From IMG/VR virus record IMGVR_UViG_3300020047_008750: DNA of 20,000 nucleotides. The stretch is one strand, 5' to 3'. Under the pieces are notes generated by a model. That model saw only the letters and a list, made by a program, of their open reading frames with translations. It was not told the DNA's origin and did no database searches. The translations under genes were made by a program, and so were the position numbers. The DNA comes from an uncultured virus (IMG/VR IMGVR_UViG_3300020047_008750) (Duplodnaviria > Heunggongvirae > Uroviricota > Caudoviricetes). This document shows, in pieces, positions 1 through 20,000 of the stretch (position 1 is its first letter; every line of letters begins with the position of its first letter).

Positions 1-1
1 C

Positions 2-634
2 ATGAAGTGGAAGAATGAACCTGCACAGATTCAGAAGGTTCGAGAGTTCAAACAGAAACGAATCGAAATCCTTCTTGAAAAATCAAATGTCTGAAACAAG
101 TTTCGAAGCAAGCGGATCAAAGATCTCTCGGATATTCCCGAACTGGAAAAACTCTGTCGATCCTATGTTGACGGATTCAAGACACACAAAGAAAAAGGTT
201 GGTGACTATACTTCTGGTGAAACATAGGATCAGGAAAGACACACAGCGCAACAGCGGTCTGCAATGAATTGATTGAAGCGCATTCAACAGAAATCTTGTT
301 CGTGAATATGTCAGATGTTTCGAACCGCGTCAGAAGCAGTTTCGATTCTGCATGAAACGATTCAGAACTGTTTCAGGACATGAAGAAGGTTGAACTGCTT
401 GTCATTGATGACATAGGCGTCGAGAAGGTCACAGAATGGTTGTCAGAACAGTTGTTTCTTGTCGTCAATTACCGATATGAAAACAATCTTCCGATAATTA
501 TCACAAGCAATCAATCAATTCAGGATCTCGCGAAGATACACAAACCGCAGATCGCGTCGCGTCTCGATGAAATGTGCAAGTCAGTCAGGTTCAAAGGTGA
601 AGACAGGCGAGTCGACAGGCGTCCGCGTTTCTAA
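2..634 (+). CDS. DnaC/IstB-like AAA+ ATPase (helicase loader); probably 5'-truncated by the window edge
   Basis: With TGA=Gly the frame is open from 2 to TAA 632-634. Walker A GLYFW-G(TGA 218)-NIGSGKTH, Walker B LLVIDDIG, then VNYRYEN..PIIITSN and IASRL..MC..V.F.GEDRR. Confidence 0.92.
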
Positions 635-662
635 AATTATTTATTTTTTACCTTTTTACACT

Positions 663-740
663 ATGAAAGAAACATTCGAAAAATGTTCAATGTTGCCTTT
701 GAAAAAGGGTGTCAGTATGAAATTTTGTTTGGTCTTATAA
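663..740 (+). CDS. Putative 25-aa small protein (MKETFEKCSMLPLKKGVSMKFCLVL)
   Basis: The ATG sits in the same TTTTTACACT-ATG context as two longer genes (2316, 17411). Ends TAA. No recognisable homology. Confidence 0.35.
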   Translation: MKETFEKCSMLPLKKGVSMKFCLVL

Positions 741-776
741 ATAGTCACTATTTTTTATTTTTTTATTTTTTTTATT

Positions 777-1235
777 ATGTCAAACAGCTTGAACAAGGTT
801 CAGTTGATCGGGAATGTCACAGCTGATCCTGTCGTCAGAAAAATCGGTGAATCTCGCACCGTCGCAAACTTCAGCATTGCGACAAATCGGACATGGAAGG
901 ATTCGGACGGAAAGAAACAAGATGTCGCTGAATTTCACAATATTGTGATCTGGTGAAAGCTTGCTGAAATCGTCGAAAAGTATGTCACGAAATGAAAAAA
1001 GATCTATGTTGAAGGACGCCTTCAATCGAGTTCGTGGGAAGATGAACAAGGCGTCAAGCGATACAAGACAGAGATCGTCGCAGATCAGATGATTCTTCTT
1101 TCAGGTGGTGAAAAGAAGTCTGACAACAGCGACGGAATGATTCAAGAGGATCCTGAAGACACAGAGATTGTCACAAAGGAAGAGAAGAAGAAATATTCAG
1201 AATCAAGTGTTGACATACTTGATGTTCCATTCTAA
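777..1235 (+). CDS. ssb: Single-stranded DNA-binding protein, 152 aa
   Basis: MSNSLNKVQLIGNVTADP...FSIATNRTWKD...EFHNIVIW-G(TGA 954)-KLAE..EKYVTK-G(TGA 993)-KKIYVEGRLQ, acidic tail ending DVPF. Absent from the ORF track because of the TGAs. Confidence 0.97.
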
Positions 1236-1259
1236 TATATAAAATATAATCTTTCAAAT

Positions 1260-1850
1260 ATGAAAAAATTCCCTTGCTCGCAAACCGCGTCAAACCGTTC
1301 ATTCATCGCACTTGATGAAGCCATTTTCTTGATTCTCTTGACGGTGGCTGTTGTATATATTGCAATCCCGATGTTCGATTTCAGCAATCAGAAAATTGAA
1401 ACACCTGAAACAGAAAAGATTCAGCTGATTTCAAAACCTGCTTGCATAAATATTCAATACAGCGAAACAACAATCCTGCGTCAAAAGTCATGGCGCGACA
1501 AGCGATTTCTTGAAAATGTTCATGTTCAACATGCCTATGAAATCTCTGAAGGCGACATGAATTTCGTGTTGACTGTCGAAGCTGAATCAAAGTTCGATCC
1601 GCAAGCAGTCGGTGACAATGGAAACAGTCGATGATTCTGTCAATGGCACTATAAATGGCACAAGGAAACGCGGAACAATCCGAACTTCAACGATCCTGTT
1701 TGGCAAATGGAAGAATGCTTCAAATACTACACACAAGTTTTGAACAACGGAACAATCAATTCGCGTCTGTACTGATACAAAGTCAGAAATCTGATGAAGG
1801 ATCGCTTCATATTCAAAGCAGAAGAAAAAACACTTCAAATCTGCGAATAA
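1260..1850 (+). CDS. Membrane-anchored lytic transglycosylase/lysozyme-like (SLT-type) protein, 196 aa
   Basis: N-terminal hydrophobic helix. Catalytic-type motif VEAESKFDPQAVGDNGNSR-G(TGA 1632)-FCQW matches SLT ES.F.P.A...G..Q. Stop TAA 1848-1850. Confidence 0.75.
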
Positions 1851-1860
1851 TCTTCTTTCT

Positions 1861-2298
1861 ATGAAAAAAAAATCACCTCTCGAAGATGTCGAATCGACAC
1901 TGTTCACTTCATGGCTGCGCTGAAACAATCTTCTGAATGGTCATGTTCCGAATGAAACACCGACAAAACGAAAGATTGTCACACCTGAATGAAAAACCTT
2001 GTGGGTTGGTTGACACAAGCGAAACATGCGAAATCGCGCGGTGTGAGTCACAAAATGAATCCCTGATCACTTCTGCTTCATTCCTGCTGATCGTTGCACT
2101 GAAGGTCGTCAGGTGTGTCTTGTTGTCGAAATGAAACGCGAAGACGGTGTTCCTTCCGATGTCAGCGAAGAGCAAGAAGAATGGCTTCAAGCTTTCAATT
2201 CTGTGAAAGATGTCGAATCATTCGTCGCATTCGGTGCGAAGCAAGCAATTCTTTTTGTCTCGCAATACCTGATCAATCCGAAAAAATACGATTTTTAG
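1861..2298 (+). CDS. VRR-NUC family PD-(D/E)xK nuclease (Holliday junction resolvase-like), 145 aa
   Basis: HVPNE...GVTKGIPD (both G are TGA)...VEMKR...SEEQEEW. Five in-frame TGA. Stop TAG. Confidence 0.88.
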
Positions 2299-2315
2299 TC
2301 TTTTATTTTTACACT

Positions 2316-2705
2316 ATGAAACAAAAATCTTGTCACCTTCAGCGTCGTTTTTCATGAATGCACGATGACTGCATATATTACACAAACGAATGCAGCTGCT
2401 GACGGTCCTTCACAGACTGGTTTGCAGACAGATCAGAAATGCTTTTCGAAACACACCTGAAAGCGAATTTCTATCCTACAGTTTCGGAACTGAAAGAAAA
2501 ATGATTCCGCGAAGACGGTCTTTCGAACTTCAAAAGAAATGTCGCACGGAAAAATCTTCGATACAGAAACGATATATGACTTTTGGAATACAATCGCAAT
2601 CACTACATTGCTTTTGAATCAAAGGAACAATTTGAATACTTCTTCCTGCACCTGAAAGAAAGTCTTGCACCGTTCGACGCTCTCGATCTCAAAAATAATT
2701 CATAA
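2316..2705 (+). CDS. Hypothetical protein, 129 aa
   Basis: Open in code 25 (4 TGA), U-rich leader, stop TAA, tight packing with neighbours. Confidence 0.75.
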
Positions 2706-2716
2706 TCTTTTTTCTT

Positions 2717-2926
2717 ATGGTCAAAATCGAAAAACAATTCCTTGCGCGTGAAATGCAGTGACTTCTTTGAAATGTCATGTCACTGAAAGGCGACAGCACT
2801 GATGATCTTGTCGAAATTCTCGAAAAGATGAAAGTCGTCACGGAAAAGATCGAAGAAGATCTATACTATCATTCAGCACCGTTTCACAAACAGGAAAGAA
2901 ACTATCAGTTCCGATTCATAAAATAG
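2717..2926 (+). CDS. Hypothetical protein, 69 aa
   Basis: Open in code 25 (2 TGA), U-rich leader, codon usage like its neighbours, stop TAG. Confidence 0.7.
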
Positions 2927-2929
2927 CAC

Positions 2930-2946
2930 TATAATGAAGTCATTAT
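2930..2946 (+). promoter_or_regulatory. TATAAT -10-like hexamer overlapped by a perfect 7-2-7 palindrome (ATAATGA-AG-TCATTAT)
   Basis: Seen directly in the intergenic gap upstream of the ATG at 2965. No good -35 found. Confidence 0.4.
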
Positions 2947-2964
2947 TTCATAATTTTCCGCAAC

Positions 2965-3162
2965 ATGAAAAAGACGCTTCAACAGAAGAAACGCAATTCG
3001 CGTTCTCTCTGGGAAAAACAGAACCGAATCTTTGAAAATAGGTTCAAGCGAAATGAAAAACTTCACAAGAAGAACCTGAAACGCCTTGCACTTTGCTTCC
3101 TTGTCTTCCTTCTGGTTCCTGTCATGATCACAATCGTCGCTTTTATCTTTTATCAACTCTAA
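2965..3162 (+). CDS. Small basic protein with a C-terminal transmembrane helix, 65 aa
   Basis: K/R-rich N-terminus followed by about 25 hydrophobic residues. Stop TAA. Confidence 0.65.
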   Translation: MKKTLQQKKRNSRSLWEKQNRIFENRFKRNEKLHKKNLKRLALCFLVFLLVPVMITIVAFIFYQL

Positions 3163-3258
3163 AATGAAAAACCTTTCTGCAAGGTGTCGCGGTGATCCTG
3201 TCAGTGAATGGCGCCTGTTCAACTCTCTATTCCGTCAGCAATGTAAAAATTCGCCTAT

Positions 3259-3504
3259 ATGGTCACTTCAAAATGAAACACAAAAACAAAACCGAAAGAC
3301 TGGAAGCAAGAGAATGCAAACATTTTCTTCATAGGTAGGAAAGAAGTTCCTTGATTCAACTTCCCTTTGCTCGAAGGAAAGATAATCAAAGACAACCTTG
3401 ATTGAACCTTCACTGTTCGTGTCTTCTGCAAAACAAAGTGAGCGCCTGCGAATCCGATGACTCTGTCAATCGAATCGAACCGTCTCTGTCGTGGCAAGTC
3501 ATAA
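3259..3504 (+). CDS. Hypothetical protein, 81 aa (possible small beta-barrel)
   Basis: Code-25 ORF MVTSKGNT...GKIIKDNLDGTFTVRVF. The TGAs fall at turn-like positions. Stop TAA. Confidence 0.6.
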
Positions 3505-3530
3505 CTCTATTATTTTTTTTCCTTTCTCTT

Positions 3531-3980
3531 ATGAAAACAATCAGCGCAACAAATCAGACAATGCAATATTTGTATTCAATCGCACTCGACGCGAATGTCG
3601 AAACAATCGTGAAACTTCGAACGGTCCGTGCTATACTTCAGAAGTCATTCCCTGTTGTGAATGCCTATGAACTCGAGAAGAAGCAACCTATGGAACAAGT
3701 CAGAGCAATCGAGAAACAAATAGACAGCATTGTTCAGCTTGGAAAGCAAGACGCACAAGCAGATCAAATGAAACAGCTTCAGGAATCTCGAACAAAGATC
3801 CTTGATGAAGTCATTGCAACCTTCGCGAATGCTGAAGTCACTCTTGAACTCGAAGAATCAGAAATTGCTTTCCTTCTCAATGAACTGACTGAAGTTCTTG
3901 CAGAAGCAAAACGATTGAAGACTTCTGAAGAAATGGTGTATTTCGACAACCTATTCACAGCACTCGAAAACGCTGCATAA
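3531..3980 (+). CDS. Hypothetical alpha-helical/coiled-coil protein, 149 aa
   Basis: The ATG at 3531 follows a U-rich leader. The track's start at 3402 overlaps the upstream gene. Stop TAA. Confidence 0.8.
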   Translation: MKTISATNQTMQYLYSIALDANVETIVKLRTVRAILQKSFPVVNAYELEKKQPMEQVRAIEKQIDSIVQLGKQDAQADQMKQLQESRTKILDEVIATFANAEVTLELEESEIAFLLNELTEVLAEAKRLKTSEEMVYFDNLFTALENAA

Positions 3981-4045
3981 TTCTGTTGACGAATTTTTCT
4001 TTCGTCATAGACTGCTTTTCGTCTTGCAGTGTAAAAAGACAACAG

Positions 4046-4073
4046 AAAGAGAATCCTTCGGGGTTCTCTTTTT
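4046..4073 (+). terminator. Rho-independent terminator ending the early/middle block
   Basis: AAAGAGAATCC-TTCG-GGGTTCTCTTT stem with a C(UUCG)G tetraloop, running into a T-tract. Confidence 0.85.
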
Positions 4074-4079
4074 GCATTG

Positions 4080-4110
4080 TTGCAATCTGTGGATTTCTGA
4101 ATATATTTAT
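4080..4110 (+). promoter_or_regulatory. Putative sigma70-like late promoter (TTGCAA-N16-TATATT) upstream of terS
   Basis: Lies immediately after the terminator. The same TTGC-N18-TATATTTAT layout recurs at 9329-9359. Confidence 0.55.
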
Positions 4111-4142
4111 TGCAATTATTGCGTGGTCATTCATACACTTTT

Positions 4143-4769
4143 ATGATCGAAAAGAAAAAAGACATTCCCTTGAAGAAAAAGAAAAAAAAGACTTGAAAAA
4201 ACAAGCGCTCTTCATGGAACAAAATTGAAGAAGGTTGAATCGCAGTCACAGACAACAGAAAGAAGCTTCAGGAAAAGCTTTTGAAGGAAGAAGCACAAGA
4301 AGACAATATTGTCAAGGCACACTTGAAGACACTTGAAAATCATACAATGACTATCGGAATGCGGATTGAAAAAGTGGCTTTTGCGATTTTTCTTTGACTT
4401 CCTGAAGCAGTTCGATGAACGCAAGGTGACTTTTCTCGCGAGTGGTGAATCAGTGAACAAGCGCTTTCTGGTTGGAAGTACCTTCCCGAAATTCAAAAGC
4501 TTCGGTTGGTGATCATGAAATCAGTTCTGATTGAAAGAACACCTGCAGTCATGGAAAACCTTTTCACTGCAGCTTCGAAAGCAAATTCATTCTGATCAGT
4601 GAATGTCGGTGCGGTGAAGTTGTGGCTTCAGTTCGTCGAAGAATGGAAGGAAGCAAGCACGGTTGATCTGAATGCTACAGGTTGATTTCAAATCAACTTC
4701 GGTGCGTGAAAGAGTCAATTCATAAATCCGACAGACGAACAACCTGTGAAGGAATCAGAGAAGACATAA
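4143..4769 (+). CDS. terS: Terminase small subunit (HTH, phBC6A51-like), 208 aa
   Basis: HTH-like GTQGDFSREWGISEQALSGWK, C-terminal AVKLWLQFVEEW, position upstream of terL. Open only in code 25. Confidence 0.8.
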
Positions 4770-4780
4770 TCCTTTTTTTT

Positions 4781-5149
4781 ATGAAATATCGAATCAGCAA
4801 CTTTGATTGATTATCTGTTTTCATTCCTTTGGATAAAGATGCAAAAAGATTCAGGAAAAAAACAATACAAAATCTTTCAGCAGAAAATTGAGTTATAAGA
4901 AAAAGAGATAGAGTTGCATTGTGATATTCTTCAAAAGATTTTTCTGAAAAAAGAAAAATTCTATTGTCTGAAGCTCGAAACAATTCATGATGTTCAGATT
5001 GTTCTTCAAAACAGTTTTTGCAGGTTCACCATAAAGACAAAGACATATTGAATAATGAATATGAAAATCTGCAAGTATTATGTTTCTATTGTCATGCAAA
5101 ATATCATAAGCATATGCAAAACAAAAATCCACCTTCTTGGCTAAAATAA
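4781..5149 (+). CDS. HNH endonuclease, 122 aa
   Basis: CSDC...LQVHHKDKDILNNEYENLQVLCFYCHAKYH. Four in-frame TGA. Visibly more AT-rich than the flanks. Confidence 0.92.
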
Positions 5150-5151
5150 AT

Positions 5152-6567
5152 ATGACCGTTCTCAATCTTTATCCTTTGCAACCTGTTCAACAAAGAGCTT
5201 CAGCAAGCACTGCGCGATTTCGGTTGATGTGAGGTGCAAAAGGCGGTTGAAAATCATATTGGATCCGTTCGGAAAGTGTTCGTGAATGTTTGTCTGCTCG
5301 AAATGTTCGATGACTTGCCTTGCGTCGAACTTCACCTGAAATCAGCGAGAACATGATCATTCCGCTTCAAAGGGAACTTCCACCGACAAGAACTTGATTC
5401 TATAATTTCAACAAGACAGACAAGATCATGCAGTTTTTCAACGGTTCGACACTGCGTTTTTCCTATTGTCAGAATCTTGCCGATGTCATGAATTATCAAG
5501 GAATCGAATATGATTTCATCGCGATTGAAGAGCTGACACACTGGACCGAACTTGAATGGAAACTTTTGATGTGATCCCTTCGAACAACTCGCGACGGAAT
5601 CAAACCGAACTTCTTTGCGTCAACAAATCCGTGATCAATCGGTCACCAGTGGGTGAAGCGTCTTTTCGTGAAGCGAGAGTTTCAGGAATGAGAAAATCCC
5701 GATGACTATGACTTCATTCCTGCGCGTGTGTGGGACAATGAAATTCTTATGCGGACACAACCGCAATATTATCAACTCTTGCAAGCACTCCCCGAAAAAG
5801 AGCGTCGCGCCTTTCTCGAAGGTGACTGGAATGTCTTTGACGGTCAGTTCTTCACCGAATTTCGAACTGACCTTCATGTCATTCAACCCTTTGTTCCGAA
5901 AAACTGAATCAAGAAGCGAATCATCTGTCTCGATTACTGATATTCTGCACCGTCTGCTGTCTATTGGTTGGCGCAGGATAACAACGACACTGTGTTCGCA
6001 TACCGTGAACTGTATGTCAAAGGCAAGACATACAAACAACTTGCAGCGCAGGTCATGGCAATGACTCCCGATGATGAAAAGATTGATGTCACGATTGTCG
6101 ATCCTGCAATCTTGAACAAACCTTCAGAGACGACAGGAACTTCAGGAAGCGACGAAATGAAAGCGGTTTGACTCAAAGTAAAATGAGCAGATAATAGTCG
6201 CGTTGCAGGTTGGCAAGTCTTCAGACAATTTTTGCAACCGTTTGAGGATCAGAACACAAGAAAGATTTCTGCGGGATTTTATATCACTTCGAACTGCACA
6301 AATTTGATTCGAACACTCCCCGAAATGGTTCATGACAAAGTCAATGTTGAAGATATCAACACCAAACTTGAAGATCATGCTTGTGACGCGATTCGATATT
6401 GACTGAAATATTTCGGTGCGCGAACAAGTTCACTTTCCGAAATAAAAACGATGAATGATGTGTTCAACAAGAAGTTCGAACAAGAAGTTTGAAACATGGC
6501 TTCTTTTTTACAAAAAAAACCTACAATAAAGACAACAAAAGGTTGAATCCTGACGCTCGAATTCTAA
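5152..6567 (+). CDS. terL: Terminase large subunit, 471 aa
   Basis: Walker A G(TGA 5230)GAKGG-G(TGA 5248)-KS, Walker B QGIEYDFIAIEELT, STNPG..GHQWVK, RRAFLEGDW, nuclease motifs CLDYG and EDHACDAIRY. Stop TAA. Confidence 0.96.
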
Positions 6568-6586
6568 TATTTTTTATCTTTCATAT

Positions 6587-9280
6587 ATGACAAAGAAAGA
6601 AACAATCAAGTCAACAGAATCAACTGTTGAAAAAGTTCCTTCACAGATTTCAGAGACGAAAACAAAAAAGCATTCGAGCGACAAGAAGGACCTTCTGAAC
6701 ACTTTCGGTGCTTCAGGAACTTCACTTGTTGAAGGATATATTCTTGAAGAATACAACCCGAAGCTTGCATGATCTGCAGGTCTTCTTGTATATGAGAAAA
6801 TGCGAAAGTCTGACGCACAAGTTTTCGCGACACTTCTCGCAATGGAACTTCCGATTCGCTCGACAAAGTGGGACATAATGCCTGCAAGCGATGAAAACGG
6901 TGAAACAGGTGATCGAGAACATGAAATTGCAGACTTTGTTCGAAAAGCACTTTTCGAGAAAATGGAAACACCGTTCGACGATTTCTTGCGAGAGGTTTTG
7001 ACAATGCTTCCGTTCGGTTTCTCTCTTTTCGAAAAAGTTTGGACCGCTGACAGCAAATATATTTGGTTGAAGAAACTCGCTTCGAGAAAACAGAATTCAA
7101 TTCACAAGTGGCAACAACTCGACAGAACTGCAGGCGTTCAACAGATTCTTCCGCAGACAGTGGTTGAATGAGTCAACGCATGATTGAACCTTGTGTCGAT
7201 CCCTGCTTCAAAACTTCTTCTTTTCTCTTTCCGTCGTGAAGGTGAAAACTATGAAGGCGTTTCTGTTTTGCGTTCTGCATACAAACACTGGTATTTCAAA
7301 GAAACAATGTATAAATTCGACGCGGTCCGTCATGAAAGACAATCCGTCGGAATTCCTGTCATATATCTTCCGTCAAGCGCTACACCTGAAGACAAAGAGC
7401 AAGCAAAGATCATCGTCGCAAACATTCGAGCAACAGAACAGACAGGTGTTGTCATGCCTTGACCAAAGGAAGACGGTTGGCTGTTCGAATTCGCGGACAT
7501 GAAGTCAGGTCAAAGCACAAATCTTTTTGAATCAATCAAACACCATAATCGCGAGATTGCGAAGAACATTCTTGCGCAGTTCCTTGAACTCGGTGACACA
7601 GAATCAGGATCGAAGGCACTTTCAGAAGATCAATCAGATCTATTCCTTCTTTCTCTTGTCGCTGTCGCGAATCAAATCAAAGACACTATCAATCGTTTTC
7701 TGATTCCCGAACTGGTTGACTACAATTTCGACGATGTGAAGGAATATCCGAAACTCACTTTCGAAAAACTCGGTGTTGTTGACTATGAAAAAATTGCAAA
7801 CATTCTTTCAAGTCTTGCAGGTTCCGAACTTCTCACAAAAGATGAAGATCTTGAAGACTATCTTCGAACAACACTGAATCTTCCTGCTCGGAAGAAAGAT
7901 GAAGGCACTGATGACGATTCTAAAGATGATGAAACAGGCGGTGTTCAGAAAAAAGACACTCCTGAAAATCCAGAACCTACACCAAAAGAAACAATTCAGA
8001 AAGAAATCATTGATGAAAAAGAAGAAGAGAAATTTCATGAACACGGTCCCGATTGCAATCATGAAAAGATTCACGATGACGCACAAGTGTTCTTTGACGC
8101 GAGCTTTCTCGGAATGTCTCGAATGTTCAACAACAAATTCATCATTGAATTGCAGAATGAATGTCGGACCGCTGATGATTATGCTCGCTTGAAACAGAAG
8201 GGATTCAAGTTCAACGATTATGAGAAAGAAGCGTTTCGTCCGATGACCTTTTCAGAAAGAAAGGTTAACTTTGTTTCTCTGAAGCGTTCAATGGAAACAT
8301 TCGAAAAAATCCTTCAAGACAATGTCGATTCAATCATTCAGAAACAGCGTGAAGACATTCTGAAGCAGATCAAGAAAGCTGTCGACAGCAATGACATTGC
8401 AGCAGTCGGAACAATAAAAGCAAAATACACAGCGGATCTTTCACAGGCGTTGACCGATGTTCAGAAAGAAATGTTCGAAATCTGAAAGAAGTCTGCAGCG
8501 GTTGAAATGTCAGTTCAGGTTCCTGCAACGAAAGCTGAAGTTCGATGAGCGATGAGAGTTCAGAATGACGCAATGATTGAATGAATGGTCAATGACATGG
8601 AAGTCACCGCAAAGAAAGCAGCAACACAGGTGATCAACAAGAATGGCGGTTCAATCACGACAACAAGCAGTTCTGAAGCGGTTGCAGCTGCTTGATCATC
8701 TATCGACAAAGTGATGACAGGTCAAGTCAACACACTGAAGACGCTCGGAATCACAGGTTCTGTCAATCTCGGACGCTCTTCGATATTCGAAAGATATCCT
8801 GAAAAAATATATTGATTTCAGTTTTCTGCGATTCTCGACAGTTCAACAACGCAAACTTGTCGATCTCTCGACGGAAGAGTCGTCAAAGCATGATCGCGCG
8901 AATTCTATGACTACGCACCACCGCGACACTATGGTTGTCGCTCGATCTGGGTTGAAATCCTGAATGAAGAATCATTCAAACCTGAATTCACCTGAATTCC
9001 TTCTTCAATCCCTGCGAATCAGACAATCGAAACTTTCAAGGATATCAAAGCACCGATTGTTCTGAAGTGATCACCTGTCATGACAGTCATTCAGAAGGAA
9101 CTTGACGAAACTCGCGAGAAATTGAAACAGCTCGAGATTTCTTGAAAATATAAAAATCGCGCTGACTGATATCGAACAAGAATCGCTGAACTCGAAAAGA
9201 GTCTTCAGTGAACTTTCAGCGAATATTGTCGTGAAGTTCTGATTGCTGACTGAATATCATTCAAAGAGGTTTCTGAATAG
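6587..9280 (+). CDS. Portal protein (DUF935/Mu gp29-like) fused to a MuF/SPP1 gp7-like head morphogenesis domain, 897 aa
   Basis: One frame with no TAA/TAG. Portal motifs YEKMRKSD, FGFSLFEKVW, GVSVLRSAY, LIPELVDYNF. Acidic/His linker at about 7890-8080. MuF motifs FSAILD..TT..CRSLDG and PPRHYGCRS at about 8820-8945. Confidence 0.92.
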
Positions 9281-9326
9281 TTTCTGCAGCAGAAATCGAA
9301 TTTCTGTGACAGAAACGCTTCAGAAA
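9270..9326. repeat. Nested palindrome array of six TTTCTG/CAGAAA half-sites
   Basis: TTTCTG-N3-CAGAAA at 9281-9295 and 9301-9315, enclosed by TTTCTGAA (9270) and TTCAGAAA (9319-9326). Confidence 0.85.
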
Positions 9327-9699: not shown

Positions 9700-11319
9700 A
9701 TGAAAAAGAAATACAAAATCAACGCAGAAGAAATTTCAACAAAGTTTTCTGACGAAAACAATCTTCCGAAAGAAGTTGCAACAAAGATCATAAATGCTCT
9801 CTATGAGAAAGGCAAGGACGCGAAACAATTTGAACGCGTCTTGTGGAAAATGGAAACTTTCATTCGAAAGAATTCTGTTCCTGCTCTTATGAAAGCAATG
9901 ACACCTGAACAGGTCTGACAGCTTGTCGATGAAATGATTGCAGACGATTCACCTTGTGAAGATCAAAACTGCTCTTCACCTGTTTGTTGCGCTGAAAACT
10001 TTCATGTTTGGTGATTCACCGAAATGACAGGTGAACAGTTCGCTGAAAAAACATTCGAAGCAGGTGACACAGTCGAACTTCAGATTGCGCGTGTCGGAAA
10101 ATGGAATCACCCTATGTATTGAGAAATTGAAATCACGAAAGAATCTATTGACGACATGAAAAGCAACTTCGATGACAATTCTCGCTGAATTGAAATCGCT
10201 GTTGATGAAAATCACGAATGAAATCACCGTGCGCTCGGTTGGTTTCGAAAGGTCACAAAGAAAGGCGAAGATGCTCTTTTCGCAACTATCGAACTGACAA
10301 AGAAAGGTGCGGAACTTCTGACAGAGTGAGCATATAAATATTTCAGTCCTGAAATAATTTTCAACAAACATGATGAAGAATCATGAGAAATCATAAAAAA
10401 TTTGTTGATTGGTGGTGCGTTCACAAACCGTCCGTTCTTCAAAGCAATGCAACCCCTGCTTGCGAATGAAGACTTCGCGAGTGAAGCAGCCAACCGTCAC
10501 CAAAAAAATGGCGAATTCTCTGATCCCGATTCAGACAACATTTTATTTTTTAGCACCTCAAAGAGTATGAAAACACTTCTTGAACTTCTCGCACAATTCT
10601 GCGAGTTGTCAACAATCAACAAGGCGCAACTCGAACAACTCGAAGCTGCGTTTTCTGAAGTCAAACCTGACTATGTCACACCCGAAATGACAGCAGCAGT
10701 TGACGAAATCAAAGCAAAATTCACAGAAGAAGCAGCACCTGAAGCAACACCTGTTGCTGAAGATCCTGCGACGCCTGCTGAAGCTGCACCTGTCGATCCT
10801 ACGCCTGCAGAAGATCCTGCACCAACGGACACGACGGATCCTGTTCCTGCTTCTGACACCGTTCCTGCTTCTGACGCTGAACCTTCTGAAAAGAAGATTG
10901 AAGCAAACGAAAAAGGCGAGGTCACTTTGAAATTTGCAGAATATGAGTCTCTCAAAGGACTTGCTTCAGAAGCTTGAAAATTGGTTCGTGAAGCACGAAA
11001 GAACAAAATCGACGCGCAAGTCAGCTGATTCACTTTCAGCGAAACAAACAAAATCGGTGTTGCTCTTCCAAAAAACAAACAAGAAATTGTTGATTTTGCA
11101 ATCTCTCTTTCAGAGAAGCAAGCAGACAAATTCTTGTCAATCGTCAGCAAACTTCAAACAGTTGCTGCAGGTGAAATCGGATCTGCTGAAGCAGGTGACG
11201 CATTCTCTGAAGCTGAAGCAGAACAAGTTTCTTTCTTCACTGAAAAAATGGGAATGACACCAGAACAGGCAACCGAAGCAGTCAAGAACGCGAAAGCAAT
11301 TCTTTCTGCAAAAAAATAG
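9700..11319 (+). CDS. Mu gpI-like prohead protease/scaffold protein, 539 aa
   Basis: LQIARVGKWNHP, VDENH...ALGW, ELTKKGAELL...YKYFSPE, GGAFTNRPFF, followed by an Ala/Glu/Pro-rich scaffold region. Stop TAG. Confidence 0.92.
10567..11319 (+). CDS. Putative nested in-frame scaffold protein (Mu gpZ-like), 250 aa
   Basis: In-frame ATG preceded by an intergenic-style U-rich tract (ATTTTATTTTTTAG) just after the protease domain. Confidence 0.6.
10729..10880 (+). repeat. Low-complexity Pro/Ala/Asp/Glu coding repeats in the scaffold, including GTTCCTGCTTCTGAC x2
   Basis: Encodes EAAPEATPVAEDPATPAEAAPVDPTPAEDPAP...VPASDTVPASD. Confidence 0.7.
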
Positions 11320-11348
11320 TCTCTTTTATTTCTTAGCATAATTTTTTT

Positions 11349-11810
11349 ATGACAGCAAAAACCGCAGATTCAGAGGTCACAAGGAAGGACGGTCAAATGA
11401 TCTCTACACCTATGATCGCAGCTGAAATCATCTATAAAGGCGCGAATGTATTCGCAAAAGCCGCAGGTGACGCATTCAGCAATGACGGGACAACAAACAC
11501 TCTTGCAGTTGGTGATGTATATCTTGGAGTTGCAGTCGAAGGTGTCGACAATTCCGCAGGTGCTGCACAAGCAAAAGATGTTCGAACCTACATTGAAGGT
11601 TCATTCTTGATGACTTTCAGTGACACAATCACGAAAGCAAATCAAGGCGATGATGTCTATGTCAACAATGCTTCTGACGATTCTGTCGTCACAGTCACAA
11701 CTGACACAGGCAATCCGCAAGTGACAATCGGAAAGATTGCACAGTTTGTTTCAGCAAATACTGCTTGGGTAAAACTCACAGGCGCGCTGACAAAAGCAGC
11801 AAACGCGTAA
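11349..11810 (+). CDS. Capsid cement/head decoration protein, 153 aa
   Basis: IYKGA...YLGVAVEGVDNSAG...QGDDVY...IGKI..FVSANTAWV. Lies between the protease and capsid genes. Confidence 0.8.
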   Translation: MTAKTADSEVTRKDGQMISTPMIAAEIIYKGANVFAKAAGDAFSNDGTTNTLAVGDVYLGVAVEGVDNSAGAAQAKDVRTYIEGSFLMTFSDTITKANQGDDVYVNNASDDSVVTVTTDTGNPQVTIGKIAQFVSANTAWVKLTGALTKAANA

Positions 11811-11861
11811 TAGTCTTTTTTCTACACTGCAAAACAACTCTATTTTCTCATTTTCTCTTTT

Positions 11862-12767
11862 ATGCTTACCAGAAAAGACATTTCACGCTTGCTGACAGTT
11901 GGTCTGAAGACTATCTTTCAAGCAGCATATGACGGTGTTGCTGTTCTCTATCCAGAGATCACAACAGAAGTCAAATCGACAAACGCTTCTGAAGACTACG
12001 GTTGGCTCGGTTCAACTCCTTGACTCACAGAGTGGAAGGACGAACGCGCACCGAAGGCACTTCTTCAGCAAGGTTTCAGTCTCACGAATAAAGACTATGA
12101 AGCGTCAATCGCTGTTGATCGCAATGCGATTGATGATGATCAGACAGGAATGGTCAAAAGTCGTGTTCAAGCAATGGCGGTCAAAGCTCGCAAGTCATAT
12201 GATCAGCTTCTCGCGACAGTAATCGAAGCAAACGGTCTGTGTTATGACGGACAAAATTTCTTCGACACTGATCATTCAGAAGGTCTTTCAGGAACACAGG
12301 GCAACTACACTTCAAGTTCAGCTGCTCTTGCTATTGATAAGGTCAAGACAATCATTCAGACAATGCGAGGTTTCAAAGATGATCAAGGTAATATCGCAGG
12401 AATCAATCCTTCGCATATCATGGTCCCTTCAGGTCTCGAATTCACAGCGAAAGAACTTTTTGATCCGATGTATGTTGCAGTCACAACTGATCCTTCAAAG
12501 GCAACTCTGAAAGGTCTCTTGAAAGTGATTGTCAATCAGTATCTCACAAATGCAGGTACTGTTGCGAATTCTGCATATTATGTCATGGACATGACACAAC
12601 CTGTCAAACCTTTCATTTTTCAGAACCGCAAGGAACTTGAATTCGTTGCGCTCGACGATCCTTCAGATCAAGATTTTTTCATGCGAAAAACTCTTTACTA
12701 TGGTGTTGACGCTCGATTCGCATTCGGTTTCGGTGACTGGCGAACAGCGTTCAAAGCACAAGGATAA
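11862..12767 (+). CDS. Major capsid protein, Mu gpT-like, 301 aa
   Basis: YGWLGSTP-G(TGA 12021)-LTEW, NKDYEASIAVDRNAIDDD, CYDGQNFFDTDH, KPFIFQNRK, YGVDAR..FGFGDWR. Confidence 0.96.
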
Positions 12768-12776
12768 TTCCTTTCT

Positions 12777-12833
12777 TTGAAACTCTTCATGACAGACAAG
12801 CTTCAACGCTTGTCTGTCACACAAGTGTTTCAA
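12777..12833 (+). terminator. Long stem-loop after the capsid gene (terminator, processing or stabilising hairpin)
   Basis: Perfect 12-bp core TGACAGACAAGC/GCTTGTCTGTCA (12790-12819) extended by TTGAAAC/GTTTCAA. No immediate U-tract. Confidence 0.6.
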
Positions 12834-12874
12834 TGTCTACACTGCAACACTTTTTATTTTTTCACCTTTATATT

Positions 12875-13384
12875 ATGACAGAAAAAAAATCACTGATCGT
12901 TGCTGCGGTCATGCCGAATCACCCTTCAGGAACTCGACGACGCGCAGGATTCGTCTTCACTACTGAAGCGCTTGTCTATGAAGTGACAGAAGAACAGAGA
13001 AAAGAAATCCTTGCTGATCAGTTCCTTCGAATTGTGACAAAGGGAACCGCACTTGATGACGCAATGCAAGCTTATAAAAAAAAATGCGAAGGTTCTTCAG
13101 ACTCTTCAGACATAGAATCAGCACCTTCTGCAGAAAGTTCAGATAATGCTTCAAATCTCGCGCCTGTTGCGTCAACTGATCCTTCAACTGATGAAGACAA
13201 GGGAAGTGATCCTTCAACCGCACCTGCGTCAACTGAAAGCGAACCTGAAACTGAAAAACCTATTTCACGAATGAACAAAGCAGAATTGATTGCTGAACTC
13301 GAGAAGAAAGGTCTTGTTGCAGGAACAGACTTCGAACCCGAAGCATGAAACAAAAAACTTGCTGCTCTTCTCTCTTCACTATAA
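12875..13384 (+). CDS. Mu-like post-capsid protein (FluMu HI1506-like N-terminus, S/D/E linker, small helical C-terminal domain), 169 aa
   Basis: RRRAGFVFT...V.EEQ...ILADQFL, then ISRMNKAELIAEL. Reads through TGA 13346 to TAA. Confidence 0.75.
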
Positions 13385-13410
13385 ATTCTATTTCATAACA
13401 GCTTCATTGT

Positions 13411-14061
13411 ATGGAAAACCTGAAAGCAATGCTTCAATCTTTAGCAGATTTTTGATTTCAATCAGTTTTCACAGCAATGGTGCTGTTCCTATGATATAAA
13501 TATTTTGACAAGAAATTCTTTTCAAAAAAGTTCGTTGAGAAGACACGACAAATCAATCGTGACCTTGACGAAAAGGAAAATGAAGAGTCAAAGCGAATGA
13601 TCAAGCGTGTTCAGACATATCTGAATTGAAACAGTGAGAAACTTCACAAAATGTGAATTGATCGTGCTTCAGTTTGGATCAATCACAACGGAATGCGCAA
13701 CGGAAAGATTCATTTCATATTTTATTCATTGATTGCTGAATTTTCTGCATACTGACTTTCGAAATTTGCAGACACACCTGTCGGAAGTCAAAAACTTCCC
13801 TATTATATTTTTGCGGAATATGAAGAAATGATTCTTCAGAAAAAATGAACTGTTTTTGTCTCTGATCAAGTCACACTTTCAGAAACAAGCAGAGCGATTG
13901 CACACGATCAATGAACGCAAAGTCTTGTGATTGCGCCTGTCTACAATATGAACTGAAAAATCGAAGGAATGATTTTCTTTTCAAGCGTATTTTCAAAACT
14001 CGAAAAGCAACCTATGGTCGATTATATGGTCAACGATATTCGCGCACTGTTCATTTCATAA
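13411..14061 (+). CDS. Single-TM protein with a C-terminal GAF-like domain, candidate holin, 216 aa
   Basis: TM FGFQSVFTAMVLFLGY. GAF-like GIDRASVWINHNG and GTQSLVIAPVYNMNGKIEGMIFF. Eight in-frame TGA, so it is absent from the ORF track. The ORF is well supported; the function is inferred. Confidence 0.65.
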
Positions 14062-14070
14062 TTTTTTTAT

Positions 14071-14529
14071 ATGGCGTATACAACAGCAACACAGGTCAGG
14101 AATGAAGCATGATTCGAAGGGAACACAAATGTTCTTGAATCTCTTGTCGACAAGATGTTGCTTCAAGCGCACGGTGTTGTTCAAAGTTATGTTTCTGCAG
14201 CATACAATGTCGCAGACTTCACAGGCGCTCTTTTCACAGGTTCACAAGCTGAAGGAATGCTTGCACGCGCTGAAGAATTGATCGGTGCATGATTCTTGCT
14301 GATCAAACAATATTGACTCGAAGGAATCGGAACAGAAGCGGATTGATACAAGAAGAAAGCAGAAGGTGAAAATCTTTTGAAATCTCTTCTTGATCCGAAG
14401 CGTCCTTTGCGTCTTCTCAATGTGAACGGTGTTGAATTCACTCGCGTCAGCGCTTCACCTTCTGGTTGACTCTATGCGTCAGGTGTCGTCGTTGATTGAA
14501 ACAAATTCAGCGTCGATGAAACTTTCTAA
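14071..14529 (+). CDS. Head-tail adaptor, Mu gp36-like, 152 aa
   Basis: MAYTTATQVR...LLQAHGVVQSYVSAAY...LL+SL pattern and gene position. Confidence 0.75.
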
Positions 14530-14540
14530 AAATTGATAAA

Positions 14541-15023
14541 ATGCAAATTCAATTTTCAGTCAATGGTCAAGTTCAGCTTTCACGAAATCTTCGCGTTTTA
14601 GTGACAAAGCTTTCGAATATGTCTGAATTTTATTCGGAAGCAATCGGTCTTGTCGCTGACAAATCTGACAGAATTTTCAGGAATGCAGGAAACAATGTCG
14701 AGAAATCCCCGACATGGAAAACTCTTGCGCCTTCAACACTTCGAGCGCGCGAAAAGCGTTGGTGATATTATAAAAACACACCGAAGAGTCCTTGAACTAT
14801 GCGTTGGACCTGAAATCTTCAGGAAAACAGAACAATCAATGTCACCGACAAGCAGTGATCATTCACCTTCAATGCACCATATGCAACATTTCATCAGGAA
14901 TGATGAAAGCGTCTTCCGAAGCGTGCGATTCTCGATGTCGACAACACGACAGGCGCAGAAATAGTCAGGTCAATGCAGAAGAAAATCAATCGCGACATAT
15001 GAATTTCGTGACTGCAAGCGTAG
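14541..15023 (+). CDS. Virion morphogenesis/tail completion protein (Mu gpG / P2 gpS-like), 160 aa
   Basis: WKTLAPSTLRAR, MRWTGNLQ, PYATFHQE-GG(TGATGA 14901-14906)-KRLPKRAIL. Stop TAG. Confidence 0.88.
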
Positions 15024-15124
15024 AAAGAAAATAATTGTTTTTTGCTCTCTTCTTCATATCATTATTTCAAGCAAACACAGTCAGGTTCCTTCCTCTTGCT
15101 TATTTACTTATTTTTTGAAGGAAA

Positions 15125-15865
15125 ATGAAAAATGTTATTTTAGCAATCAAGGGGCTTCTTGAAGCTTCTGTCGCAGACTCTGAATCACCTCTTTATTGAA
15201 TAAAGAAGGTGTTTTTCGGTGATCCGATGATCATTCCAGAATCAGATCTTCCTGCAATAGCGATTCAACCTGTATCGACAGATTATGTCATGCGCGGTTC
15301 TCGCTACGATCAAAAACAACACACGGTTGAAGTTCGTCTTGTCTATAATCAAAAGCAATATTTCTGACAGAATCTTGCGACAGGCGTTTCAATCACAGCA
15401 GGTTCATTTTCCGTCAATTCAATGAGTTTCACAGCGACAGCACACGGTCTTTCAGTTGGTGACAGCATTGTCATTTCAGGTGTTCTTCCTGAAGCATACA
15501 ATGGAACCTATTTGGTCGCAACTGTTCCTGACGCAAACACCTTCACAGTTTCAAAATCAGTTGATCCTTGAACCTTCGCGACAGGTGGGATCGTACAAAA
15601 AGCAACAAACGACAAAGTTTTCGCAATCGAAGACGCAATCAACAAAGTCGAATCTGTAAATTCTGACCACAGCACAGCAGCATTGTCTGTGTGTGGCAAG
15701 ATCCAAAGCAATTCGTCGCTTCCTTATACAGTGGGGGCTGTCACAAGGAATGCAGCTGAAATTGCGCAAATTCGATCTGTCAGCTACACTTTGAGCGAGA
15801 ACCGTTGATTCCCTTCTTTCGAAGTGGTGACAACCGTTGTCGCGACGGTGATCGGTGACAGATAA
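15125..15865 (+). CDS. Putative tail terminator/neck protein with an inserted FCCH-like beta domain, 246 aa
   Basis: IKKVFFGDP...LPAIAI N-terminus. Insert TAHGLSVGDSIVISGV...YNGTYLV..VPDANTFTV. Positioned before the tail tube. Confidence 0.65.
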
Positions 15866-15890
15866 TCCTTTATTTTTTCACTTTCTCTCT

Positions 15891-16085
15891 ATGAGCAAAA
15901 CAGTCAAACTGAAAAACGATTCAAACGAAAATCTTGCTTTTGCAGGGTTTCCGATGATCGGACCGAATCAGACTTTCGAAGCAACTGAACAAGACGCTGA
16001 AATTCTTTTGCGAAATAGCAATGTCAAACTTGCTGAACCTGCAAAAGAAGAAAAGTCTGAAAGAAAAGTTCGCGGTGTCGAATAA
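15891..16085 (+). CDS. Small hypothetical virion-associated protein, 64 aa
   Basis: ATG after a pyrimidine-rich leader. Stop TAA. Typical small gene before a major tail protein. Confidence 0.75.
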   Translation: MSKTVKLKNDSNENLAFAGFPMIGPNQTFEATEQDAEILLRNSNVKLAEPAKEEKSERKVRGVE

Positions 16086-16112
16086 TTATTCTATTTTTTA
16101 CCTTTCAATTTT

Positions 16113-17348
16113 ATGGCTTCAACACGCCTTTCATATCTCGCAATCAAGCGAGAATCAACCGCAGCACTCGCAGTCAAACCTTCACACTTCCTTCGATTCA
16201 AAGACGGTGATGTGATGTTCAAGCAAGATATCATCGCAAACAACCCGATTCAAAATAATCGTTGGAATGCGTTGAATGCAGTCAAAGGAAAAGCAACAGC
16301 AGAATGAACATACAATGTCGATCTTGACGCGAATGAATGTGTTCACTTTCTCGCGCCTGCTCTCGGTGGTCTTGCGACAACCGATGTTTCTTCAAATACT
16401 GCAGCATATCGTCACGACATAACAGTCGCGAACACTCTTCCGACAGTTTCAATCGAACAAGGAAAAGGCAACCTGACAGACACTTCGAACAACTATCAAA
16501 ATTTCGTTGTTCATCGTGCATATGGTGTCATGATTGATTCATTCACACTTTCAGGATCAGACGGAATCTTGAATCTCGCAGTCAGTGTCAAAGCACACGG
16601 TCTTTTGATGAAAAGAAATCTTGTTTCTGATATCACTTCAGGTTCAACAAAAGTTCTTTCACTTGATTCAGCTGAAGGTTTTGTTTCTGGTGATTCTGTC
16701 TTGACTTATGACGAAACACCGCACAGCGAAGTCGACACTTTGACCGCAATTTCTATTGCGAACAAGACAGTTTCAATCGCAACACTCTCAAATTCATATA
16801 CTGTCGCGAACAAAGCGAAGGTTGAACTTCAACCGCAGTCACCTTCCTATGGAACCGATGCAAAAGTGTTTTCATTCATTCATGCTCGATTTCAGTTCGG
16901 TGCAGATCTCACTGCAGCCGCTTCAGCTTCTCTTGAAAATATTGAAGACTGGGAACTGACATTCATGAACAATCTTGAAGAGCGTCACGGATCACTTCGC
17001 GAGACACCTTCTGTCATAGCACCAAAGGGCGCAAAATGTACTTTCAAATATACAAAATACTTTGAAAATTCAGTTGAGCGTGATCGCTATTTGAACCAGA
17101 CAAAGCGCGCAGGAATCTTGACAATCACAAATGATGAAATCATTTCTGCAGGCGACACCAACAGTTCGAAATATAAGATTGTTGTTCAGATGTCAGATGT
17201 CAGATTCATTTCTGAAGAAATGCCGACAGGAACAGACGAACTGTATGCAATCAGCGTCGAAGCTGAATGCTACTATGACACTTCTGACGGTCAAGCAATT
17301 CAGATCAAGGTCACGAATGCAAAAGCAGGCACAGAATACACAGCGTAA
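16113..17348 (+). CDS. Major tail tube protein with an inserted accessory domain, 411 aa
   Basis: YLAIKRES, E-G(TGA 16305)-TYNVD, YRHDITVANTLPTVSIEQG, AYGVMIDSFTLS, IEDWELTFMNNL. The single TGA joins two track fragments. Confidence 0.88.
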
Positions 17349-17410
17349 TTCACAAAAGGTTTTCGAGCTTTCCTTCATAAAAGCTTCACTTATTTTTTTA
17401 TTTTTACACT

Positions 17411-17809
17411 ATGTCAGGAACAAAGAAAATCGAGTTCAACCTTGATTCGCGTCAGACAAAAACCGTTGAACTTCCTTCATTCCCTTGAAGCGAAGTCATT
17501 GTCTATCCTTCACTTTTGGTCAGTGATCAGAGAGAAATCGAAGGCAAGTTCAAAGGACCTGACAACAAGGTTGATGAATCAAAGATTCAAGATTTCAGTC
17601 TCGCACTTTTGGTCAAGTCAATCAAGTCATGGAACTTCACGAAAGACGGTCAAGATCTCGCAATCACAGCTGAAATTCTTCAAAGCTTTCCTTCGATTGA
17701 TTTTCTTGTTCTCAATGAAGCAATCACAGGCAAGAAATTGACGCACAAGAATGACGCAGGTGACCTTGTTGCAGGTGCAGGTGATGATTCTGACAGTAAA
17801 AAAAAATAA
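17411..17809 (+). CDS. Tail assembly chaperone (gpG-like), 132 aa
   Basis: IKSWNFTKDGQDLAITAEILQSFP motif. Lies between tube and tape measure genes and ends in an A9 run plus TAA. Confidence 0.85.
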
Positions 17810-18051
17810 TCGCAAAGAACAAGGTTTTTGACGCATTGATTCAGTGAAAGGGATTCACAGCGACAAATGAAGATGAAGCAGACGCGGTTGCAAGATACTT
17901 TGATCTGACTCTTGCGAAGGAATACGGTTGGACACAGACGGACATTCTTCACAGGACGACACAAGATTTCTACAATGACGCGGTTCTGAAAATGCAAAAG
18001 GAAGCATTCTTCAATCAAAAGGAAGCAGAAAAAAGGAAAAACAGTAAATAA
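17798..18051 (+). CDS. -1 frameshift extension of the tail chaperone (gpGT-like C-terminus)
   Basis: A9 slippery run at 17798-17806. The -1 frame is open to TAA 18049-18051, contains LAKEYGWTQTDIL, and has no early ATG of its own. Confidence 0.8.
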
Positions 18052-18060
18052 TTTTCTATT

Positions 18061-20000
18061 ATGGCAACAAACAAAGTCGAATTCATAATTTCTGCAAAAG
18101 ATGAAGCAAGTCAGGTCATAAAAAATGTTGATCAGAATGCGCAAGAAATGTCGTGAAGCGTTTCAAAAAGCTTCAACAATCTTGTGTGACCTTCTGCAGC
18201 ATTTCTTTGAGTTTTGACCGCTGTCGGTGCATGAATGGTTGTTCTTTGAAAAAATGGTTTGACTGCTGCTGCTGATCTCGAGACTGCTGAAATTGGTTTG
18301 ACAACACTTCTGAAATCTGCTGATGAAGCAGGAAAGACAGTCGCGCGAATCAAGGAAGAAGCGTCAAGAACACCTTTCGAACTTGTCGGACTCTCGCAAG
18401 CTGTTCAACTTCTCGCTTCCGTGACAAAAGACGGAAACAAAGCAATCGACATTGTTCTTGATGTCGGTGAAGGTCTTGCAGCAATGGGAAAATGACAACC
18501 TGAACTTGACCGAATCATCGTGAATCTTCAGCAAATCGCAGCTGTCGGAAAAGCGTCAATGCTCGATATCAAACAATTTGCGTTTGCAGGAATACCGATT
18601 TTTGAAATGTTGCAAGAGCAGACTTGATTGTATGGTGAAGAACTCGGTGATCTGATCACCGACGGTGGTGTTTCTTTCGATATGCTGACAACGATGTTCG
18701 ACAGAGCAAACGACGAATGATGAAAGTTTTTCAACGCATACAAAAATCAAGCGTGATCATTCAATCAATCCCTTTCGAACATGAAAGATTCAGTGACTAT
18801 TTTTCTTTCTGAATTAGTCAAGCAAACAGGCGTCTTTGACCTTATGAAAAGAGTTTTCATGACGGTCACTGAATCACTTCCGAAACTCATGACAGCAATG
18901 CAGTGACTCGCGCAGACTCTGAAGGAAAATCCGAACATTGTTCTTTGAATCGCGACAGCAATCACTGCAATGCTTGTTCCTGCTCTCTATGCAGCCGCTG
19001 TTGCTGCTCTTCCTTTTATCATCGCAGCAGGTCAACTGATTTTGATTTCAGCTGCTGTCGGTGCTGCAGTCTATCTTCTTGCGGAAGCTTGGACGAATAA
19101 TTTTCTTTGAATACAAACTGCAACAATGGCGGTCTTCAATGCAATAAAAGCGATTGTCGAAGCGTTCATTCCTATATTCAAAGGCGTCTGGGATATGCTC
19201 GCAGGATATTTTCAAATAACTTTCTGATCTATTATCGGAATTTTCAAAGCGTTCTTTCAGCTTTTATCAGGTGACAGCGCGTGAGCGTGGGAAACAATCA
19301 AACAAGTCTATGTCAACGCGTGGGAATGAATCATTCGTTTTTTCGGTGGTCTTGGCGCTGTTCTCGGTTGAATCTTCTCGCTTCTCTGGGAAGGTATCAA
19401 ATACGGTGCGGAATTGGCTTGGAATGCAATCATCGAAGTTCTGAAGCTTGCTGTCACTGGTCTGACGCTTGTCATTGTCGGGTGGGTTGATCTGATCATG
19501 ACAACCTTCAAGGCATTTTGGGCGCTTCTCACTGGTGACTGGAAAGGCGCGTTGAATATCCTTTCTGGTTTGTGGTGAGGTGTTTTTGAAAAAATCAAAC
19601 AAATCGGAATGACTATTTTGACAGAAATCGGAACATTCATAATCAAGAAAATCGTTGATCTGGTCAACTGGTTCACGAATGACGGTCAGCGTTCATTCAC
19701 AGAATGATTCGCAGCGATGATCTGATGAATCGCGAATGTCGCGAAGAATGTCTTCAATGGTGTGATCGGAACAATCGAAAGTTTCATAAATTATGCAATC
19801 AACGGTCTGAATCAACTGATCAGCGCTTCGAACAAAGTGAATCCGCTTTTTCAGATTCCGACAGTTTCACCGATTGCAATTCCGCGATTCGCACACGGTG
19901 GTCTTGTCTGAATGGCTGAAGGTGGCGTCGTATCGGGCGCAGGTTGAATCGACAAGGTTCCTGCAATGCTTTCTGCAGGTGAGATTGTTTTGAACGCAGC
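18061..20000 (+). CDS. Tail tape measure protein (3'-truncated by the window)
   Basis: VEFIISAKDEAS N-terminus, tape-measure domain (LTTLLKSADEA...ASRTPFEL...AFAGIPI), periodic W/F helical repeats, PRFAHGG and DKVPAMLSAGEIVLN near the window end. Confidence 0.95.

Follow-up and report, generated by a model that had tools for sequence, protein, structure and literature searches.

A tailed phage genome in which TGA encodes glycine and its probable host among Gracilibacteria-type bacteria

We analyzed a 20,000-nucleotide stretch of DNA from an uncultured virus (IMG/VR record IMGVR_UViG_3300020047_008750; Caudoviricetes), referred to here as the window, with respect to the meaning of its TGA codons and the bacterium that it may infect. 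An earlier note, made from the letters alone, had described it as an intact phage written in genetic code 25, in which TGA stands for glycine, and as a likely virus of Gracilibacteria or Absconditabacteria. The window has a G+C content of 41%, and its recognizable genes all lie on the + strand. When TGA is read as a sense codon, 22 genes occupy 91% of the window, and 126 in-frame TGA codons are distributed over 21 of them; in the 16 genes that were tallied, TGA accounts for 95 of 329 glycine codons. The window represents roughly half of a tailed phage of about 37 kb, and the word intact applies only to a 37-kb relative introduced below. It contains a replication module, a pair made up of an HNH endonuclease and the terminase, a head module of the Mu type, a tail of the tube type, and a tape measure gene. 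The features are given below as coordinates, strand, and description. Pfam scores separated by slashes were obtained with TGA translated as glycine, X, and tryptophan, in this order, and L022 is a standard-code prophage that served as the reference.

2..634, +, DnaC-like helicase loader; phrog_50 (E 2.3e-55), Pfam IstB_IS21 55.4 / 51.3 / 50.4 bits; 4 TGA, including the first Walker A glycine (218)
777..1235, +, SSB; Pfam SSB 133.7 / 125.5 / 122.3 bits; 2 TGA (954, 993)
1260..1850, +, membrane-anchored lysozyme-like protein, a weak match; Phage_lysozyme2 20.0 bits, below the cut-off of 28.2; 2 TGA, one of them at 1632
1861..2298, +, VRR-NUC nuclease; Pfam VRR_NUC 24.2 / 18.5 / 19.2 bits (cut-off 23.8), phrog_824 (E 2e-18); 5 TGA
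Between the VRR-NUC gene and the small-terminase position, small genes of no recognized family
4077..4769, +, protein in the small-terminase position; 32% identity to the L022 gene directly upstream of the terminase large subunit gene; 9 TGA
4781..5149, +, HNH endonuclease adjoining the terminase; Pfam HNH 24.8 bits, phrog_119 (E 9.8e-9); 4 TGA
5137..6567, +, terminase large subunit (TerL); Pfam Terminase_3 and Terminase_6N; 14 TGA (Walker A, 5230 and 5248)
6587..9280, +, portal of the Mu gp29 type fused to a MuF-like head morphogenesis domain; Pfam Portal_Mu 187.0 / 186.0 / 185.8 bits, Phage_Mu_F; 16 TGA
9700..11319, +, Mu I-like head protease/scaffold; Pfam Mu-like_Pro 68.8 / 63.0 / 58.3 bits; 9 TGA
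11349..11810, +, virion structural protein; phrog_1731 (E 2.9e-20); 0 TGA among 13 glycine codons, the sole gene without TGA
11862..12767, +, major capsid protein of the Mu gpT type; Pfam Mu-like_gpT 235.8 / 235.3 / 233.9 bits; 1 TGA among 22 glycine codons
14541..15023, +, tail completion or neck protein; phrog_26 (tail completion/Neck1, E 4.7e-8); 8 TGA, including a TGATGA at 14901
16113..17348, +, tail tube-like protein; Pfam Phage_tube_2 (E 2.6e-11); 1 TGA among 23 glycine codons
18061..20000, +, tape measure protein, continuing past the window end; Pfam TMP_3 80.2 / 75.7 / 71.8 bits; 23 TGA

The TGA codons to which the note had drawn attention (218, 954, 993, 1632, 5230, 5248, 14901, and 14904) are all in frame and lie in genes supported by homology. 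Two of the family labels attached to them hold only loosely: the gene containing position 1632, which had been called SLT, falls below the Phage_lysozyme2 cut-off, and the one with the TGATGA, which had been called gpG-like, matches the tail completion/Neck1 family. The replication genes (DnaC-like, SSB, and VRR-NUC) are recoded in the same way as the late genes, as had been stated. Pfam and PHROG scans returned no family for the protein in the small-terminase position. Searches against solved structures yielded no match for TerL at E <= 0.001, and only chance-level ETS-family matches for the VRR-NUC protein (E 0.06-0.1).

All 21 complete genes terminate in TAA (17 genes) or TAG (4 genes); it should be noted that this outcome, which the note had listed among its observations, follows by construction once TGA is taken as sense. 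The comparison of coding densities under alternative codes, which had been suggested as a check, is unsuitable for this DNA. Depletion of the dinucleotide TA leaves nearly all six frames open when TGA is read as sense; the + strand then has 49 frames of at least 150 codons and the - strand has 43. TGA makes up 3.4% of all trinucleotides in the window. Coding density was therefore dropped as a codon test, and homology was used in place of open reading frame length. Alignments to L022 reach within 2 to 13 residues of the protein ends, and the ends of the window proteins agree with those of this standard-code relative.

To avoid bias, searches were run with TGA translated as X. When one genome per species was scanned with a TerL alignment, 80 loci were obtained, the best of which was L022, a prophage at positions 114512-135864 of a 499,835-bp contig in the 'Candidatus Peribacteria' genome G003. 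This locus shares a syntenic head module with the window, with identities of 52% for TerL, 55% for the portal fusion (over 891 residues), 47% for the protease, and 54% for the capsid protein, and with five more genes. It is a standard-code locus, in which in-frame TGA is absent and the frames under code 11 are long. The genome that carries it encodes 41 tRNAs, none with the anticodon UCA, and a prfB match over the cut-off. Translated from DNA, L022 provided a clean reference to which nine window proteins could be aligned at 32-55% identity.

Against this reference, 30 of the 49 aligned TGA sites were occupied by glycine and none by tryptophan, with a background of 5.7% glycine among the aligned residues (binomial P ~3e-25). 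Control codons behaved comparably: GGT was aligned to glycine at 40 of 65 sites, GGA at 23 of 32, and GGC at 9 of 16, and TGG was aligned to tryptophan at 21 of 27 sites, in keeping with the claim that TGG is the tryptophan codon. When the TGA codons of TerL were compared with 78 further standard-code loci, glycine filled 408 of 893 alignment cells and tryptophan 25 of 893. At the invariant columns of the Walker A, NPG, and DYG motifs, the standard-code loci had glycine in 78/78, 79/79, 78/79, and 79/79 cases, the two Walker A codons (5230 and 5248) corresponding to 78/78 and 79/79. The Walker A codon of the helicase loader (218) was opposite glycine in all three solved loaders shown. In SSB, the note had assigned two TGA codons to invariant glycines; this is borne out for position 993 (glycine in 4 of 4 solved SSBs) and only partly for position 954 (glycine in 2 and asparagine in 2 of the 4).

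Profile scores pointed in the same direction. Glycine scored above tryptophan in 8 of the 10 top Pfam families. The VRR_NUC cut-off was passed only with glycine, and Phage_lysozyme2 was matched with glycine only, tryptophan giving no match. The HNH score was the same with both residues. As read from these comparisons, the assignment of TGA to glycine in this phage is strongly supported.

The remainder of the genome could be followed in G001, an IMG/VR record (the same record as G002) that aligns to window positions 753-20000 at 95% DNA identity and to positions 1-657 at 98%. It is 37,263 bp long, has direct terminal repeats of 121 bp, and is rated 100% complete. Beyond the window it encodes an AAA_24 ATPase, an RNase T-type exonuclease, a PD-(D/E)XK nuclease, a SET-domain protein, a Lin1244-type replication protein, tail fibre-sized proteins, and an amidase endolysin. 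All of these genes carry in-frame TGA, the early ones 2-11 each. The window contains no tRNA gene. In G001, none was detected with the Rfam tRNA model (whole record) or with ARAGORN (locus L001, 21,428 bases), and no release factor or synthetase family occurred among the 12 genes scanned outside the window. The check for such genes in the rest of the genome, which the note had recommended, was made in this way on a near-identical relative. Since the early genes are recoded and the complete relative has no tRNA gene, the phage appears to need a host in which UGA already means glycine, and dependence on a code-25 host is the simplest reading. The SET-domain protein (Pfam SET, E 5.3e-16; L021 3255-3896, - strand) lies in the early region of G001; judged from its domain, it would act as a lysine methyltransferase, an unusual enzyme for a phage to encode.

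One weak TerL match, in genome G136, had in-frame TGA, and the order of 204 genomes to which G136 belongs was consequently searched with the window DNA. Matches at E <= 0.01 were obtained in 147 of the 204 genomes, and all of the strong ones fell in SSB, at 64-74% DNA identity. The SSB genes of this order carry in-frame TGA, and in one of them (L160) TGA occupies the same two glycine sites as in the phage. At the protein level, the SSB of the phage matched its own relatives at 68-98%, followed by four organism-named entries from 'Candidatus Gracilibacteria bacterium' and one from 'bacterium'; the former sit on contigs of 4-353 kb. In a 401-genome sample of the same taxonomic class, the G136 order supplied no fewer than 10 of the 13 best SSB matches but only about 55 of the 401 genomes (hand count). 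Only 8 of these 401 genomes had a TerL relative.

Decoding genes were examined in members of this order. G228 contains a tRNA with the anticodon UCA located 42 bases from tRNA-Gly(GCC); its GCGGG...CCCGC acceptor stem and the base before CCA are as in both tRNA-Gly genes and unlike those in tRNA-Trp. G228, G136, G216, and G252 each gave a single release-factor match, below the prfB cut-off, with TGA inside it in three of the four. The G+C content of G228 is 39%, compared to 41% for the phage.

We therefore propose that the window belongs to a tailed phage that uses code 25, with UAA and UAG as its only stops, and that lacks decoding machinery of its own. With no tRNA, release factor, or synthetase from the phage, nothing that it encodes would change the meaning of UGA; the infected cell would have to supply tRNA-Gly(UCA) and have no release factor 2, and every gene class, early and late, would need both. 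The host would be a UGA=Gly bacterium, most likely of the Gracilibacteria (BD1-5-type) order with the nearest cellular SSB relatives, and Absconditabacteria would be the second choice. We assign this reading as a whole a probability of roughly 0.85. The host portion of the earlier claim is favored by code compatibility together with the affinity of one gene, SSB, and it is on these two lines that the assignment rests.

The opposing view assigns the codon to tryptophan (code 4), as in Mycoplasma-type hosts and in recoded gut phages with a late switch. Relatives in the protein database seem to speak for it. At E <= 1e-5, 593 TerL homologues were found, and among the 120 listed, both Walker A TGA columns hold 95 glycines, 17 tryptophans, and 8 gaps; TerL codon 257 is, in addition, opposite tryptophan in 25 standard-code homologues. 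However, it is not believable that tryptophan would occupy a glycine column of the Walker A motif, and the DNA of one such relative, L023, has TGA at these very sites. The simplest account of the tryptophan minority is that gene callers translated TGA-bearing relatives with table 4. The absence of tryptophan from the 49 sites aligned to L022 and the lower scores of 8 of 10 Pfam families with tryptophan weigh further against code 4, which the alignments already refute and which we regard as having a negligible probability. Several observations nevertheless do not favor glycine. Terminase_3 scored lower with glycine (41.0 bits) than with tryptophan (42.0) or X (45.1); 19 of the 49 TGA sites are not glycine in L022, which is comparable to 36% for GGN codons; TerL codons 59, 146, and 350 stand mainly opposite cysteine or isoleucine, alanine, and alanine, lysine, or proline, respectively; and the sole TGA of the capsid gene is opposite methionine in L022.

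Two further alternatives accept glycine and concern the host. A phage of a standard-code bacterium could reset UGA during infection by means of its own suppressor tRNA or another factor, which is how most recoded phages in print work according to the available text of Borges et al. (10.1101/2021.08.26.457843), and the nearest prophage relative does reside in a standard-code genome, with RF2 and without tRNA(UCA). This is improbable given that no tRNA gene was detected in the complete relative (95% identical) and that the DnaC-like, SSB, and VRR-NUC genes, together with the early genes of G001, carry TGA, so that nothing could be made before the switch. Moreover, recoding of 21 of 22 genes fits the figure of about 90% given in that text for code-25 phages, versus 26-71% for switchers. 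It is a more serious consideration that the host might be a member of the Absconditabacteria (SR1) instead of the Gracilibacteria (BD1-5-type). The free phages in print that clearly use code 25 are mostly those of Absconditabacteria, 44 of 50 versus 4 of 38 for Gracilibacteria in the available text of PMC10746230. Against this, all four taxon-named cellular SSB matches are from 'Candidatus Gracilibacteria' and none from Absconditabacteria, and the G+C content of the phage is near that of G228; we consider an SR1 host unlikely, although it retains appreciable weight. The assignment to a Gracilibacteria-type host also has to be set against several results. The absence of tRNA genes from the whole genome rests on G001 and not on the genome of the window itself. 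Short DNA matches in the 204 genomes of the candidate order fell mostly in an A+T-rich spacer upstream of SSB, and of the 15 others checked none lay in a CRISPR-like array, so that the spacer check proposed in the note gave no link to a host. Prophage relatives were not found in code-25 genomes (204 + 401 genomes, one representative per species), and integrated relatives were found only in standard-code genomes. The identity of the phage SSB to cellular genes is only 52-59%, SSB genes transfer between phages and hosts, and the name Gracilibacteria rests on the NCBI names of similar proteins.

Glycine codons were not rewritten to the same extent in all genes. In the capsid, the tube, and the virion protein at 11349, TGA represents 2 of 58 glycine codons, versus 93 of 271 in the other tallied genes (Fisher P 1.5e-7). 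The same pattern was seen in L023, an independent recoded relative: its capsid gene (7021-7918) has 3 TGA among 26 glycine codons, TerL 14 among 25, and the portal gene 38 among 61. For TerL, the share was 14 of 30 in the window. The proteins most abundant in the virion thus avoid TGA for glycine. Recent import of the capsid gene from a standard-code phage was rejected as the cause of its low TGA content, since the capsid identity to L022 (54%) is not above that of the portal (55%) and TerL (52%). In candidate hosts, the EF-Tu gene contains no TGA in G228 and G136 and 10-17 in G216, G289, and G252.

The nearest relatives outside the recoded group use the standard code at 52-55% protein identity. 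Besides L022, these include L179, found in an IMG/VR scan with the TerL alignment, which is 54% identical and has a G+C content of 64%; other matches in that scan were 31-40% identical. Because the nearest relatives use the standard code and one of them is integrated in a Peribacteria genome, the lineage spans hosts with different codes. Tentatively, and with clearly more doubt than confidence, we suggest that it straddles a code boundary, with a standard-code Peribacteria prophage branch and sister branches (the window phage and L023) in which 30-60% of glycine codons were rewritten to TGA and the capsid was spared, UGA-Gly decoding still being slow or costly in the host. If this were true, the lineage would form a natural series showing how a virus is rewritten after a change in the code of its host. 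Setting the window phage beside its standard-code prophage relative could reveal how the genomes of phages keep pace with such a change.

Other relatives were less informative about hosts. L023 is an 11,654-bp contig of 29% G+C in a 'Candidatus Neomarinimicrobiota' metagenome-assembled genome (MAG), with a TerL about 60% identical to that of the window and TGA at glycine sites; it probably comes from a code-25 phage and was placed in a standard-code MAG through a binning error. A TerL relative of 83% identity lies on a 77-kb contig, which may possibly be a prophage with host flanks. A scan of metagenome contigs for close relatives returned only relatives of 33-38%, and a cluster look-up of ten TerL relatives gave one organism name, a Calditrichia MAG. 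Among 50,697 GenBank phage records, the best TerL match was 40% identical.

The statement that few phages with this code are described was too strong, as dozens of code-25 phages and prophages have already been reported. In the available text of the preprint by Borges et al. (10.1101/2021.08.26.457843), code 25 is used by part of the recoded phages, and Absconditabacteria hosts are predicted for some of these; in-frame TGA occurs in about 90% of the genes of code-25 phages and in 26-71% of those of phages whose hosts use the standard code. Liu et al. (mBio 2023; PMC10746230), as far as the available text goes, matched CRISPR spacers to IMG/VR and GVD and found code 25 to be clear, among phages larger than 20 kb, in 44 of the 50 from Absconditabacteria and in 4 of the 38 from Gracilibacteria, in addition to prophages. 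Judging from these portions of the two papers, the published code-25 phages and the window phage are alike in having TGA=Gly densely in nearly all genes, in needing no suppressor tRNA, and in being inferred to share the code of their host. Unlike the published examples, the window lineage has no spacer-based host link, and its TerL is at most 40% identical to GenBank phage records. It may already be among the phages of those papers, the near-identical relative being an IMG/VR record. The principle of UGA=Gly phages has thus been published, and the window adds another such phage.

Gut phages with recoded stops (codes 4 and 15; Lak and crAss-like phages), whose hosts use the standard code, likewise use a stop codon as sense in their genes. 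In the descriptions available, however, they read TGA as tryptophan or TAG as glutamine, often with suppressor tRNAs and with recoding mainly of late genes, whereas the window has TGA=Gly and recoded early genes and no tRNA was found. With phage Mu, the window shares the gp29-type portal, the MuF domain, the Mu I protease/scaffold, and the gpT capsid. Unlike Mu, the complete relative has direct terminal repeats, and the tail consists of a tube and a tape measure. No transposase family was detected among the scanned genes of the window and G001. This is not a transposable Mu-like phage, and its likeness to Mu is confined to the head module.

The window offers a clean, well-controlled example of a virus that would be locked to the UGA=Gly code, and a new lineage that joins the few viruses tied to Gracilibacteria-type bacteria. 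Its annotation requires table 25: under table 11, 21 of the 22 genes are broken, and under table 4 tryptophan falls in Walker A motifs, as some database translations of relatives appear to show. In many public protein records of this phage family, tryptophan stands at invariant glycines, for example at DYG in 39 of the 120 relatives listed, apparently through the use of table 4 and not table 25.

The base composition of the window is extreme. The observed/expected ratio of TA is 0.28, and among 164 other loci of at least 4 kb the minimum was 0.46 and the median 0.80. Locus L001 of the complete relative is likewise strongly depleted of TA. Depletion was seen at all three codon phases of the window, with ratios of 0.47, 0.14, and 0.21, the last value being that of codon junctions. 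In sampled DNA of the candidate host order the ratio is 0.71, and the depletion in the phage is therefore not host mimicry. Several 4-base palindromes are missing as well. ACGT, CCGG, CTAG, and GGCC do not occur in the 20 kb and TTAA occurs once, compared to expected counts of 28.5, 18.8, 10, 3, and 17, respectively; GATC and TCGA are not depleted. This pattern looks like the avoidance of several restriction systems, superimposed on a wider avoidance of TA. In a 59-kb sample of G228, ACGT, CTAG, GGCC, and TTAA seem low and GATC and TCGA high, as judged from rough, hand-derived expectations.

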